DNA from: Convolutriloba macropyga
Taxonomy: Eukaryota
Direction of reading: 5' to 3'
Length of the DNA: 64,000 bases
NCBI RefSeq assembly: GCF_964194025.1
Contig: NC_134475.1
Location: forward strand, 50,778,001 to 50,842,000
Under the pieces are notes generated by a model. It was given only the letters and a program-made list of their open reading frames with translations. It did not search any database and was not told the DNA's origin. A program made the translations under genes and the position numbers. Positions 54,639 through 64,000 of the stretch are shown here, piece by piece; positions within the stretch are counted from its first letter, which is position 1; each line of letters begins with the position of its first letter.

Positions 54639-55460
54639 TCTATGGAAGAACTAATTCGCCTGGAGACGAGGAGAACTTACAAGAAGACCTAAATGCTATG
54701 GTTGAATGGCAACTAACATACTATCCAGATAAAGCAAACGTCATGGAAGTTGGGAAAAGCAGAGCACAATGCAATCGGTACTCACTGGGGAACGAACCTG
54801 AAGCACCGTTAACGAAAATTGCCACAGAGGAAAAGGACTTGGGAGTGACATTTGACAGCACTCTGAAGTTTGAAGTGCACATTGAGGGGAAAGTAAAGAA
54901 AGCAAAAAGAATACTCGTGATCATCAGGAGGACATTCCGCTTTCTCGACGACGGAACACTGAAACTGCTCTTCTGCCCATTCGTGAGACCACATCTCGAG
55001 TATGCATCAACCGTATGGATTCCGCATCTGGTGAAGATCACGACTATGCTAGAGAACTTGCAAAGACGAGCAACGAGACTACTGAAGAATTCAGAAAGCC
55101 AATCATACGAGGGCAGACAGAGAAGGCTGGATCTTCCATCATTGTCGTTCAGAAGACCGAGAGATGACATGATCGAGGCTTTCAAAATCATGCATCCAGC
55201 AGTGGGATACGATAGCCGAGCATCTGCATCACTGCTCCAGAGGAGTCAACACGAACCAACACGAGGTCACTTTGCAAAATTCAGAATCGAGAAGTTCTGC
55301 CTTAATTGCCGAAATTTTGCTTTTTCGTAAAGGATTGTCAAGGACAGGAGCTCCCTCTAAGAATCAGTTGTGGCCGCCTAAACCGTGCACTTGTTCAAAA
55401 ATGGACTAGATGCAAATCGGAGCACACACCGACTGAAACAGTCACCCCCATAGAAGAAAG
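54639..55460 (+). mobile_element. CR1/L2-like LINE, 3' part
   Basis: Resumes YGRTNSPGDEENLQEDLNAMVEW, then EEKDLGVTFDSTLKFEVHI, VRPHLEYASTVW, LENLQRRATR and TRGH. Confidence 0.9.
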
Positions 55461-56118: not shown

Positions 56119-57877
56119 CTGGATTGTTCTAGCAAGCCAGCTTGGCAAGACACCAAAGCTAAAAATGGATCAAAGAAAGATCAGACTGCGAAAGGGAGCG
56201 ATTCGAGGACCTTAACCAGTTCTCACTGCCATGGTGACTATCGGAAGAGGATAGTAGGGCCTTCACCACTCGACATTATGAAAATAGGTCAGTGGAATTG
56301 CAAGTCACTTTGCAATGAGAGTGTCATCTCCGTGCTCACAGAAAATATGAAAAAGCGACGAATTAGACTGTTCGCGCTAAATGAAACACATCGATGTTGT
56401 GATGAAAGCACATATGGTGACTACACTCTAAACAACAGTGGTGTAACATATAAAGCAAAAAAACATCAGCTCGTGTCGGTGTGATCTACGACACCAAACT
56501 GGTGAAGATGATTAAGTTCATACCAGTTTCGGAAGGAAATGCGAAAGCTTTCATTGAAACATCGGGTGCAAGATTGAAATTGGTTGTTACCTATGCCCTG
56601 ACTGAAAACGCTGATGAAAGTGAGTATGCAGCATACTTAAAGGAATTGGCGGAATGCACTCGGAGTTCAGACCAGATCTATTATGAAAAGATGCTCATTT
56701 TGGGAGACCTTAATGCAGTGATTGGCCTAGATCTGAATGACCATCTGCTAAGACAGATCGGGAAGGCAGCAGCAAGTGATGAGAGTAGCCGGAATGGTTT
56801 GCTCCTTGCAGAATTTGTCACTGAAGAAAAGTTGAGAGTTGATCATACTTTCCTCTTGAAGTCTGATGTGCGGAAGTGCACATGGAGACATCCGAGAACC
56901 AAGGAGCTGTCTCTGAAAGATTATGCACTGACAAAATTGTCGGCAGCAAAACATCTCAGAGTAAGAGACGTGAGAAGTTCTTGGGAGGATAGTTTGGACT
57001 CCGATCATGCAATGATGATAGTATGCATTGAAAAATGGCCATAAATGAATGCAAGGAAATCTGCGAAAGCGCAAAAGCTGCTGAATGATGTGCGGAGCAA
57101 TTGCTACTCAATCCTTCAATCAGCTCCTGAGCTTTAAAAACTGAAACATATCCTCTCAGAACTAAGATCCTGAATCTTAGAAAAGTTAACACTGTAACTG
57201 ATGTGTTAACAGAAGTAGTCGACAAACATGAGCTCGCAGAAGAGACTCTGTTGATAAAAACTGACTGCTGGGCTGCTCAGATAACGCCGAGCGAAGTAGA
57301 AACACTTCGAAAGAGAAAGGCAGCGCATAATCTGTACCGTTCTGAAAGATCAGAGAGCAGAAAGATCGAACGAGATAAATTGAACAGAGAATTGAAAATA
57401 ATCACCTATGAATGCAAAGAAAGAGCAGTCGAGACAAACCTTAAAAGGTTTGAAAGCAGCTTGATGATAATGAAACCAGAATTCCCTATAAAATCTTGAA
57501 AGAGACGTTACGAACCTACAGGGTAACTTGGTTCGAGCGTAACAAGAAAATGAGCGGCCCCAGCAAAAGTCAATATCAAGAACATTATCAGAAGCTGTTC
57601 AAGCAACGACTGACTCAAAAAGCCACGGTGCTAGAAGCCCCCTCGAAGGAACCGAATAGTTCTAAAGACTTCTGTTAGGAACCCAATGAGGCTGAGGTTA
57701 GAACAACCTTAAGAACCCTGAAATCTGGGAAAGCACCTGGAAGGAGTGGCATTGTTCCTGAAATGTTGAAAGCGCTTTAGAAGGAGTTGAGTCCTCTTCT
57801 CACAAAAGTGTTCCAAAGCATTTGGACAGAAACAACAAAAAGTACCACAGGAATATAGGGACGCGAAAGTCGTTAGC

Positions 57878-59563
57878 TTGTTCAAGAAATGGCTGAAGAC
57901 AGACCCGAAAAACTATCGGTCCTTATTTATGCTTGAAGCCGAAGGAAAATTTCTATGCAAAATTATCAAAAGCAGAGTTGAATCAAGAACAGATCACAAA
58001 CTGGACAAGTTCCATTTTGGCTTCAAAAATGGACGGAGCACTCTGCAAGCCATCTGGGGATTGAGAGAGATCATTCAAGGCTCTAGAGAATCTAGAGAAG
58101 AGTTAGTGATTGTCTTCATCGACCTTGTCAAAGCTTTTGACTCGGTTGATAGAGAAACCACGATAAGATCTCTAAGAGCTTTCGAAGTTGAAAACGCCCT
58201 CAGATGCCTAGTATGGCAAATACATGAAAATGCTCACGGGGAACTAGACTCAAAGATCAAATTCAAATTAGAACGAGGGGTCAGACAAGGATGTGTCATT
58301 GGTCCACAAATATTTAGTTTAATATTTGATAATGTCTGCAAAAGGAGTCTAGCCCAAAAAGATCATCTTGCGTATGCAGATGACTTAGTGACACTGGCAA
58401 AAAGTGAGCAGCAAGCGCAGAGCAAATTGAATAAACTCAGCCTGGAAGTGGAGAAAGCCGGCATGGAAATTTCATTTCCAAAGACAGAAGTAATGACATT
58501 AAACATGGGAAAAGCATGTAGTGTTGCCCTCCAGGGCAAAAGACTGAATGAAGTCACTGAGTTTAAGTATCTGGGTTCGATAAATGGCCAATCTGATATT
58601 GAGGCCGCTGTGAAGAGTAACTGCACTAAAGCTAGAATAGCTATCGTAAAAATGAGACCTGTGCTAGTCAGCTCTACTCTCACAATGAGAATTAAATGTC
58701 GGCTAATTGAAATGTGTTTAAAGCTAGTAACTCTGCATGGGCTGGAAAGAGCCACAACGCGAGAGAAGGACATCGACAAAATGGGCGCTGTTCTCAACAA
58801 AGCCGGTCGCATGGTCGGTGAGACATGCAGCAAGAAAACTTACACATCTGAAGTCCTTGCACTGAAAGTCCCTCTGAGAGATATCAAGATAGAACTCGCA
58901 GTAAGAAGAGCGAAGCTTTGGCTGAGTCTCAAGAAGCTGAAAGATGATGAGTTCATAACGCGAAGGAGAAAGACGTTTTCCAAAGATTGGATGCGTGCAC
59001 TCAAACTTGATCTAGAGAGACTGTGTGTAAAAGATATTGAAGAATGGATAAGAAATTCATCAAAAGTAGAGTATTCGCTGAACGTAAATACTCAAGTAAA
59101 ATCAGGGGGCACGAGAGAACAAATTGTTGCATGCGTGATTGGAAACTGTGCAAGGCACTTTGCAACATCAAAAGAGATGCGTAGACATCTGAGAAATGAC
59201 CACTCTGAAAGTGGCGAAGGATTGGATATGAGTCCTTTCCAAGCAAATGAGCCCACAAGAGCGCCAATGGTATGTCCAGCTACGGGCTGCAAAATGACAT
59301 ACAAGCAAATCAGATGGTGGCTTGACAACATGGAAAAGGCGCACCCTCAGTGTACAATGGTTGAAAGTGATAATGTCACTGAGGAATTAACAGCAGAACC
59401 ACAGAGCACTGACCTGAGTGGGAACACATTGAGACAACAAGAAGATGAAAGCGGAATTTTAGTGCCCGCTATGACCCAGGGCATATACGCTCATCAAAAG
59501 TGTTCAGAACCACTGCTCGACCAAACACAGATGGTCGTACACCAAGAACTGCCCGATTGGTGA
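57878..59563 (+). pseudogene. Largest open segment of the RTE ORF (RT, thumb, two C2H2 fingers)
   Basis: 561-aa ORF with YADD and CVIGNC..F..RRHLRNDH. Confidence 0.85.
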
Positions 59564-61552: not shown

Positions 61553-61654
61553 TATTTTCTTACATAGTAAGGTACTATATAAAAACGTATAATCTAAAAC
61601 TGGTGGTCATAAAAAACACTGGGGGGTAAAACAGAATAGATCACATTAAAATAC

Positions 61655-62115
61655 CGTAATATCCGTTACGGTTTGGGTTGGGGGTTTATTAAGCATTTTA
61701 GACCTCGAAATTACTGATGAAAATTGTCCACAGATTAATTTTTTAAACAGAGTTAGAATTAATGATTGAAAATACAAGAATTTTCAAAACATGAGAAGAT
61801 GAAAAGCTATTTAGAGAATCTTAGAGATTTAGTTTCGAATATGGTCTTTGGTTTCGGTCCTATCAATGGTTGAATATTCTTAGGTTATTTTAACCCATTT
61901 TCTTTAATCTCTTTGGGATTTCCTCATAGTTATTTTTTACCGCACGGGTTCCTGTTTGTTAAACTATCAGATAACAGGTTTACCTGCCTGACGAATCCCG
62001 TCAAGAAACAAACATTCCCTGACGTCTCCCGTCAAAATGAAGTTCCGCGATGTTTCCCATCATTATTTATGATGCTCTCTTTATTTTGTTAAAATCCGGT
62101 TTACTCTTAGTAACA
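61655..62115 (-). repeat. Putative 3' LTR of the env-bearing element
   Basis: The minus strand starts TGTTAC at 62115, just after a purine tract. It contains two TGACG..CGTCA repeats and AATAAA (61685-61690), and ends ..GTAACG / ..ATTACG, a decayed inverted terminus. Confidence 0.5.
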
Positions 62116-62116
62116 A

Positions 62117-62133
62117 TCTCTTTTTGTTCTCCC
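62117..62133 (-). other. Putative polypurine tract
   Basis: gggagaacaaaaagaga, 1 nt upstream of TGTTAC. Confidence 0.5.
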
Positions 62134-62269
62134 ATTTATTCTGAAATTTTAGAATAGTGAGTTCAATATGTATTTTATGAGCATGCCATACATTAATTTC
62201 TATGGTTTACTACACTGCATCCCTCCTAGAAAATTTGAGTGTTCCACTCGCTCCCAAGCAAAATTTTCA

Positions 62270-63100
62270 AAGTTCCATTTTCGAGTTCATAAATTCCTCT
62301 GCTTTTTTCAATCCCGTACTTGTCATAAATATTACGGGCCTCATCGTCTTCTCTATTTTTTTCGCCTAAAAATTAATTTTGAAAATGTCTTTCCGACCAC
62401 CCATGTCCGGATGACAGAGCATTGACAACATTTTGAAGTGTTTCTGGATAGTGCTGGTTATGGCCCCTGTGGGGAATAGAATCTTATAAAAATTTGGAGG
62501 TCGACTGAACGGGCTCTGCGCGTTGATCGGCTCCAGCCTTCTCTGGATGACCTATTTTGAGGTCTGCTATGTTCCTACCCTACTGTTTAGCCTTCTGATA
62601 TCTTCCTCGGCATTCTCCATTTCCCACTAAACACTCCCGTTCATCCAGCAGAGCGATACATTCTGTTGTCTTTCGGCTACATTCACAACCTCCTCCAGGT
62701 CTTGCTTCCATATTTCAACCTTCCTCCTGCAGGAGTGGTGCTGATTCTCAGCGCATTCAAGCAGTCGCTCGGTCTGAAGCAATTGTTCACATAACTTTTG
62801 ACCTTCAAGTTCTAACTGCCGGAGCTCCTCTTCGAGCCGAACCCCGGCAGTTCCCAGCATTTCGCTGTTGTCAGTCTTCATTTGGTGTTCCTCCATTCTC
62901 TGATGCATCTCATGCAACTCCACAAAACTTATTGCTGCTCTATCCGCTATATTGGGTGGTTGCAGCTTCGTCAATGGCACCACATATCTTTTATTTGAGG
63001 TTACTCCAACAATCCGATACACTTGGTGCCTGACTATCGAACTGACCTCGCACAAATCGGGTAGATAGTAGCATTAATCGCCAATTTTTGGTTCTGCCAT
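62270..63100 (-). pseudogene. Intronless coiled-coil + C-terminal J-domain (DnaJ, HPD) gene, decayed
   Basis: One frame from MAEPKIGD through the 142-aa coiled-coil ORF and several in-frame stops to NFYKILF..IQKHFKMLSMLCHPDMGGRKDIFK, then after a frameshift DDEARNIYDKYG. Confidence 0.75.
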
Positions 63101-63109
63101 TCCTGCATA

Positions 63110-64000
63110 TCATACACCTAAACAATCTAATGTGTCGATCTCAATTGCGGCCATATCTTGTACATATTTAGCTTTTTCTGCTTTTATAACTACAATGTTT
63201 GTATTACCATCACATCGTTCAACTGTTCCTTTTCTGGTCAATTTTTGTGCCTTAGAACGTTGTTTTAGATGATGAAAAAAATCCTAGTTCCCCAGTGGGT
63301 TAATGGGTTGCAGTGCAATTACAGAATTGGTGCCACTGCATATCGATTGAAAGAAACACACATACCAAACAAAACATGATTTTAGATCCAACAAAGATAG
63401 TCATTAAACTGATGGTTATTTCCGTGGCCGCATGCCAGATTTGGGTTGCTTCACTACCCAAGTGTTCAAAATTAGCAATTCAGGCCACTGGTGATTATAT
63501 TTCAAGTCCGTGTTGAAATACTCTAAAGTCTCATGATCATATAAACTTCCGTGTCCCAGGAAAATTTTTCTTCCTGTTATTGATTTTCTCGAATGCCTTA
63601 ATCTCTGTGCCGTCTTGCTGAGTCCAGGTCTTTGTCAATGAAAAACCCAGCAGTTGACCAATTGACGTTAACTCTGGAATTAGGTGTATTCTTGGGTTTA
63701 TCAATAAGTTGTTTTCGTGGGCCATATGTTATCCATGACCCATTCTACAATTCCAGAGCGTTCGCACACATGGGGTTGCAATTAATTAGTGTGAAATTTC
63801 TACAGAATACTGTAGAAATAGTGTCCATGTATCTAATTAATTCTTAACTGTTTTCAAAAGACACCTTAATTGATAATTTCTCGGTACAAAACTGGTTTTC
63901 GACAACATTTAAGATAACTTTAGCGCACCTATGGACTTAAAGTATTCCTCCTGCTCTTTCTGCGTGCATACACAGGGTGTTTTGTTGATTTCGGAAAAAT
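63110..64000 (-). pseudogene. Decayed gB-like / chuvirus-like class III viral fusion glycoprotein, C-terminal part (runs off the window)
   Basis: AERAGGIL*VHRCAKVILNVVENQFCTEKLSIKV..RYMDTISTVFCRNFTLINCNPMCANALEL*NGSWI..GFFIDKDL fits the AGxxxxxxxCxxV..C..LPV..C..P..GxW..GIYT pattern; a TM segment (ITISLMTIFVGSKIMFCLVCVFL) and tail follow. Confidence 0.65.

Follow-up and report, generated by a model that had tools for sequence, protein, structure and literature searches.

Retroviruses and LTR elements borrow host chaperones, and in the literature searched there is no report of an LTR element that encodes an Hsp70 co-chaperone of its own. One locus in the genome of Convolutriloba macropyga raises the question of whether such elements exist and, if so, what the co-chaperone would be doing for them. 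The window, as we call the whole stretch analyzed here, comprises 64,000 nucleotides (NC_134475.1, positions 50,778,001 to 50,842,000). An earlier note had read the minus strand of its last part as the 3' end of an invertebrate retrovirus-like family in which an accessory gene with a J-domain is situated between env and the 3' LTR. As that note had also seen, no frame of the region is intact. The accessory gene is here called ORF-J, the family of the window copy family A, and two further families of the same genome families B and C; the layout with an extra gene after env is found in all three.

Structure and Classification of the Element

The minus strand of 61655-64000 carries the 3' end of a Ty3/Gypsy LTR element, approximately 10 kb long and decayed, the rest of which continues beyond the window end:

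61651..61654, minus strand: 3' half of the 4-bp target site duplication (TSD), three of four bases agreeing with the 5' flank
61655..62214, minus strand: 3' LTR of 560 bp, beginning TGTAG (sequence mapping)
62215..62226, minus strand: polypurine tract (PPT), abutting the LTR start, likewise in families A, B and C
extended coordinates 70010-65142, minus strand: gag-pol, between the window and the 5' LTR
from extended coordinate 65122, minus strand: front part of env, beyond the window end

The 5' LTR lies approximately 7.1-7.7 kb beyond the window end and is 81.7% identical to the 3' LTR over 596 columns. Both the matching 5' LTR and a gag-pol region in Ty3/Gypsy order were found beyond 64000, where the earlier note had proposed to look for them. 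The same note had described an LTR of about 450 bp starting at TGTTAC, and here it has to be corrected: the LTR is 560 bp long and starts with TGTAG at 62214, and the TGTTAC (62115-62110) as well as the purine run preceding it are inside the LTR.

The gene order in open copies is gag-pol (1682 aa), env (686 aa) and ORF-J (280 aa). The single 1682-aa frame contains the Pfam domains zf-CCHC, Asp_protease_2, RVT_1, RT_RNaseH/_2, Integrase_H2C2 and rve in Gypsy order, and the Ty3_capsid match in gag is weak (E 0.0065). LTR pairs are 89-93% identical in older copies and 97.7-99.8% in younger ones, and the 4-bp TSD is exact in all four young copies with both ends resolved. Families A, B and C have one primer-binding site (PBS) in common, which complements the 3' end of the host tRNA-Ser(GCT); this 3' end has 53 pattern matches in the genome, and ARAGORN predicted the tRNA at both of the two loci scanned. 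Direct LTRs, PBS, PPT and short TSD, the features by which Ty3/Gypsy elements (Metaviridae) are recognized, are all present. Two other identities were considered and rejected. A BEL/Pao (Anakin-like) element is ruled out by a gag-pol without Pao families, none of which was among its 12 Pfam matches, and a Maverick/Polinton by the direct terminal repeats and by the internal genes, which are gag-pol, env and ORF-J. The LTR element that the earlier note had preferred to a Maverick is thus the right one.

Some minor features of the element ends were observed as well. The LTR ends depart from TG..CA: young family-A copies begin with TATAG and older ones with TGTAG, and family B ends with TATA; the elements remained active despite these non-canonical ends. 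In three copies, L088 of family A and L122-L123 and L138-L139 of family B, the PBS is longer than the usual 13 bases, toward the full tRNA match, an extension that copying of the primer by reverse transcriptase would produce. A region of 100 kb (G000:C10:2701272-2801477) contains 49 of the tRNA-Ser(GCT) 3'-end matches, many of them approximately 300 bp apart, and two of these were predicted as tRNAs by ARAGORN.

The Envelope Gene

In the window env is represented by its C-terminal part, broken by stops and frame changes:

63125..64000, minus strand: C-terminal part of env, residues 388-686 of 686 (tblastn and base mapping to an open copy)
63347..63422, minus strand: predicted transmembrane anchor, residues ~586-611 (hydropathy, mapped to the window)

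These features correspond to the C-terminal half of a glycoprotein with its anchor that had been recognized from the letters alone. The hydropathy peak (19 residues) is 2.18 at residue 587, the N-terminal hydrophobic stretch is weak (1.25), and the approximately 70 residues behind the anchor form a cytoplasmic tail. There are nine cysteines. All three families match PF24664 (Monjiviricetes_fusion) above the cut-off of 27 bits (A 52.7, B 28.6 and C 68.7 bits), and the ESM Atlas placed env with Monjiviricetes-fusion clusters (0.96). The AlphaFold2 model of env is of low confidence (mean pLDDT 44); searched with Foldseek, it found chu-like G and other negative-strand virus glycoproteins at the top (6e-15), followed by GP64, thogotovirus GP and herpes gB. 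Searching the PDB by sequence, with 395 aa of env as the query, gave no match. The Pfam, Atlas and Foldseek results identify env as a fusogen of class III, the type that the earlier note had named.

The TGA (63112-63110), the ATG at 63100 and the HPD codons (62413-62405) described before are all in place. That the ATG is in the frame of env, on the other hand, does not apply to the family: in the 24 of 30 loci (L040-L069) in which the junction is readable, env is closed by a stop of its own, the ATG of ORF-J follows 22 nt later, and the two frames differ. That they coincide in the window results from decay near 63125.

Architecture of ORF-J

ORF-J follows env and consists of three parts:

62267..63100, minus strand: ORF-J, 280 aa, after env; four stops and six indels in the window copy
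62936..63100, minus strand: predicted beta-barrel, residues 1-55, Tudor/PWWP/SH3-like (AlphaFold2 model)
62495..62935, minus strand: coiled-coil segment, predicted helix 59-197 (model and heptad pattern)
62322..62494, minus strand: J-domain, residues 205-263, HPD at 62413-62405 (PF00226 and PDB J-domains)
63103..63105, minus strand: putative splice-acceptor-like AG two bases before the ATG of ORF-J (from the motif)

The earlier description of a coiled-coil protein ending in a J-domain is borne out for these two parts, and it overlooked the N-terminal barrel. In the AlphaFold2 model of ORF-J (mean pLDDT 89, pTM 0.37) four strands at residues 9-42 are followed by a single helix of 139 residues (59-197) and a J fold at approximately 204-275. 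The predicted shape is therefore a barrel, a rod and a J-domain, in which the rod would be about 20 nm long if the helix is straight. In the heptads of the helix, hydrophobic residues occupy positions a and d in 14/20 and 11/19 cases, compared with 2-5 at the remaining positions.

The J-domain matches PF00226 with 52 bits in family A, 61 in B and 41 in C, and its motif reads HPDKGG. In the window copy the second half of the domain contains a frame break, and the match of this fragment to DnaJ is weak (E 0.0018, below the cut-off). The J fold is helical with the HPD between helices II and III, as in class C J-domain proteins, and superimposes on the J-domain of ERdj5 with Z 9.7 and rmsd 1.8. 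By both sequence and fold the best J matches in the PDB are cellular proteins (Sis1, DNAJC5 and DNAJA1). In a quick tree of 63 J-domain rows, the 13 ORF-J rows fell into one open group (support 86) together with four others. ESM Atlas matches of ORF-J (best 0.81) are leads only.

The barrel is more difficult to name. The fold search (VIA) gave the PWWP structure 6kco with Z 8.3 and Tudor structures (6if4, 5yj8, SMN) with Z 7.5-7.8, at rmsd 1.3-2.3 over 49-53 residues; the Tudor matches include SMN, TDRD3 and Tbtudor. On the tool's own scale a Z of 7.5-8.3 counts as common, and the SH3-like barrel of an endonuclease scores level with Tudor and PWWP, so that the fold names no ligand. No Pfam Tudor or PWWP was among the 25 of 42 families listed for the barrel (20 members). 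An origin as a duplicate of the element's integrase C-terminal domain is not supported (hhalign probability 0.1%, no HMM match). The barrel is basic (7 K/R, 5 D/E), and 6kco, the best match, was solved with ssDNA. Inspected by eye, the aromatic residues are kept in strands 1-3 and missing after strand 3, at positions which, we assume, a methyl-reading cage would need.

Selection on ORF-J

Variants common to at least three copies, which arose mostly at the time of replication, were compared with singletons, which are mostly post-insertion decay. Among 43 copies of family A the shared changes in ORF-J are 64 synonymous, 28 non-synonymous and one stop (N/S 0.12), and the singletons have N/S 1.05. 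The shared N/S is similarly low in the barrel (0.10), the coil (0.13) and the J-domain (0.12). For comparison, it is 0.22 in the C-terminal half of env and, in 19 long copies, 0.03 in RT-RH and 0.14 in env. The controls gave 1.84 (shifted frame), 1.00 (LTR) and 1.10 (leader). For families B (18 copies) and C (8 copies), where counts are small, N/S is 0.21 and 0.12, respectively, at three or more copies, and 0.38 and 0.26 at two or more. The HPD is kept in 39/43 copies of A, 16/18 of B and 5/8 of C, and in 7 of the 10 distant database homologs having the J region.

Purifying selection thus acted on all three parts of ORF-J during replication of the element, and ORF-J worked for the element and not for the host at these loci. 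Its architecture and the selection on it are the firmest part of our reading, which we consider nearly certain. The window copy, dead with its stops and indels, could by itself be taken for a captured host DnaJ fragment that is a functionless passenger, or for a chance read-through of env. Such an origin is highly improbable, as purifying selection is seen in three families with neutral controls, the three-part layout and the HPD are kept at approximately 30% identity, and the frame is separate from that of env, with its own ATG in A and C. The shifted-frame controls also argue against an alignment artifact as the source of the selection signal.

Copies, Families and Limits of the Clade

The genome is 1.18 Gb in size, and the window stretch is a repeat with 916 candidate DNA matches. 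In 35 of the best 39 of these 916 candidates (the window itself being one of the 39) the env end, ORF-J and the LTR are covered by a single alignment at 81-85% identity; their linkage is accordingly not due to chance, and the link between env and ORF-J asserted in the earlier note extends to further copies and to two more families. All 150 scored ORF-J matches in the genome have E below 1e-70, which puts family A at a minimum of about 150 copies or fragments. Copies were selected by best score, which biases the set toward young and open ones.

Families B and C were found with distant ORF-J homologs as queries. Family B has an LTR of 430 bp and an ORF-J frame of 308 codons, and the ORF-J frame of family C has 293 codons. 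Env is located upstream of ORF-J in 9/10 family-B and 8/8 family-C stretches, and gag-pol matches are present in 8/10 and 7/8, respectively. ORF-J of B is 26-28% and that of C 31-33% identical to that of A (tblastn), or 30-36% by local alignment. In family B a tandem repeat with units of ~37-40 bp and varying copy number is situated between env and ORF-J (L132:7246-7490).

Distant database homologs, obtained in a search of representative sequences, have the same three parts and are 29-37% identical. This genome matches three of them (P0162, P0140 and P0122) only at 30-50%, and for a fourth (P0180) it gave no match at E<=1e-20; judging from these low or absent matches, all four probably belong to other organisms. 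In viral and metagenome contigs, scans for env gave no match; a scan with ORF-J gave 80 loci, none of which had a barrel, env or pol match.

Searching with PF24664 also revealed other Gypsy lineages with gB-type env in this genome, the pol of which is about 27% identical to that of family A. Within 1.5 kb no barrel or ORF-J match was present in any of 30 such loci, and the three positive controls for this search all matched. ORF-J therefore marks a single clade. The other lineages replicate without a J gene, which is hence not generally needed by Gypsy elements with gB-type env. At least two of these lineages (L199-L206 and L169-L198) have env of about 898 and 769 aa and differing post-env ORFs of 284 and 611 aa without a Pfam match; the 284-aa ORF has a basic patch and a leucine-zipper-like C-terminal end. 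One of the two has 100% identical LTRs of 368 bp. Post-env accessory genes seem to be common among these elements.

Probable Expression of ORF-J

AG acceptor-like sites are found just before env and just before ORF-J in families A, B and C, and in A and C they are accompanied by a branch-point-like CTAAT. The leader contains a donor-like GTGAGT in 12/14 aligned copies of A, 6/6 of B and 3/3 of C, and in A or B no ATG opens into this donor. ORF-J has its own ATG in A and C. In family B the stretch ahead of the first conserved barrel strand contains no ATG in frame, although this strand matches its homologs. Family B may therefore use an exon further upstream or start translation in an unusual way. 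Among six genomic matches with an altered donor no spliced DNA copy was present (five were point variants of the element and one was unrelated). From the donor-like and acceptor-like motifs, ORF-J is likely made from spliced RNA.

Relation to Described Elements

Ty3/Gypsy errantiviruses with gB-type env are published and widespread in metazoans (Chary and Hayashi, eLife 2026; PMC13524379). As far as the available text of that study goes, they share with the present elements the LTRs, tRNA PBS, Gypsy-order gag-pol, gB-like env after pol and many near-identical copies, and the present clade differs by a further gene located after env and ahead of the 3' LTR. The main text of the study does not mention DnaJ, chaperone, accessory, Tudor or spliced, its seven supplements do not mention DnaJ or Hsp40, and the PBS string of the present clade is not among the entries listed in its table (PMC13524379). 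Anakin, too, is an LTR retrotransposon whose glycoprotein is of class III and chuvirus type, but according to the accessible text it is a BEL/Pao element of mosquitoes, whereas the present element is Ty3/Gypsy by its set of Pfam domains; DnaJ is not mentioned there (PMC7642597).

LTR elements with an accessory gene close to their 3' end include Cer1 (CERV) and bdelloid elements (ORF3). In the sections available, these genes replace env, whereas ORF-J is additional to it, and they encode other domains, H/M/G in CERV and a GDSL esterase or DEDDy nuclease in ORF3, in place of a J-domain (Cer1, PMC10309623; bdelloids, PMC5408684). CERV is also spliced, has a coiled-coil part and acts in genomic RNA export (PMC10309623, available sections). 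The polyomavirus T antigen works in a similar way, in that an encoded HPD J-domain is joined to a client-binding part. Its J-domain is N-terminal and belongs to a replication protein of a DNA virus, while that of ORF-J is C-terminal, carried on a barrel and a coiled coil, and encoded by a retroelement (PMC7356129, in the part available). In the literature searched, which does not extend to Repbase, GyDB or most subscription journals, no LTR element was found to carry a gene with a J-domain. Gypsy elements with gB-type env are known, and what is new is the barrel, coiled-coil and J-domain architecture of ORF-J. The gB-type errantiviruses include complex forms bearing accessory genes, which surveys built on three ORFs have missed.

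What ORF-J May Do

A selected J-domain with HPD almost always works via Hsp70. From its intact and selected J-domain, ORF-J very probably engages Hsp70 as well, in which case the other end of the protein would pick the client. The reading that we put forward, for and against which we see equal weight, is that the post-env protein recruits Hsp70 and brings it to the complex that the element's RNA forms with Gag. The leader donor would be joined to the acceptors before env and before ORF-J, and the protein, which has no evident signal or membrane stretch, would act in the cytosol or the nucleus. There the basic barrel, lacking a full aromatic cage, may grip nucleic acid or Gag, the J-domain would trigger ATP hydrolysis by Hsp70, and the resulting work would assemble, export or uncoat the particle. 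That the client is the element's own RNP, taken separately, we hold a little short of an even prospect. It is favored by the basic barrel, by the ssDNA-binding best fold match and by the precedent of Cer1, in which a spliced accessory protein serves genomic RNA export (PMC10309623, available sections).

The similarity of the barrel to Tudor (SMN, TDRD3, Tbtudor) and PWWP folds in the model would suit a role in counter-defence equally well. The barrel would then bind silencing proteins of the Piwi/Argonaute pathway or of chromatin, and the J-domain with Hsp70 would dismantle them or divert the chaperone from small-RNA loading. Chaperones reportedly act in piRNA biogenesis, which fits such a role. 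There is also a precedent for disassembly of host complexes driven by a J-domain, as the J-domain of SV40 T antigen and Hsc70 take a complex apart (PMC7356129, in the part available). Still, we regard counter-defence as unlikely: the barrel has no aromatics after strand 3 (by eye, at the presumed cage positions), and fast adaptive change is not seen within family A, given the low shared N/S of the barrel.

The position of ORF-J next after env in all three families, the env tail of about 70 residues and the long predicted rod, which would suit tethering, are in line with a role linked to the envelope. In budding, entry or uncoating, ORF-J would adapt Hsp70 in the way auxilin does, or connect the capsid with the env tail. 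The other lineages with gB-type env have unrelated post-env ORFs, meaning that this type of fusogen needs no J-protein, and no env-less relative was found in which joint loss could be tested. We consider an envelope-linked role rather improbable.

Returning to the recruitment of Hsp70 onto the element's own complex and seen more broadly, these elements may belong to an ancient clade of enveloped invertebrate retroviruses that are complex, splice their subgenomic RNAs and encode an Hsp70 co-chaperone of their own, with a new architecture of barrel, long coiled coil and J-domain. The clade would occur in several host species and use the host chaperone to remodel the particle or to dismantle small-RNA silencing complexes of the host, and its J-protein would be the first to be encoded by a retroelement. 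We lean slightly toward this broader picture. It opens the questions of which step of a retroelement needs directed Hsp70 and whether transposons turn chaperones against the piRNA defence. Since ORF-J is small, predicted to be soluble and open in many natural copies, they are testable with one protein.

Other Features of the Window

The window also contains repeats of other kinds. A non-LTR retrotransposon is located at 56454-59563 on the plus strand, with an endonuclease-like frame (56454-57044) and an RT frame of 590 aa (RVT_1, 115 bits), and lies between direct repeats, at 55111 and 59576 and 96% identical, of a different LINE-like fragment. Positions 12600-46300 contain degenerate AT-rich dispersed and tandem repeats of several families (D1-D20).
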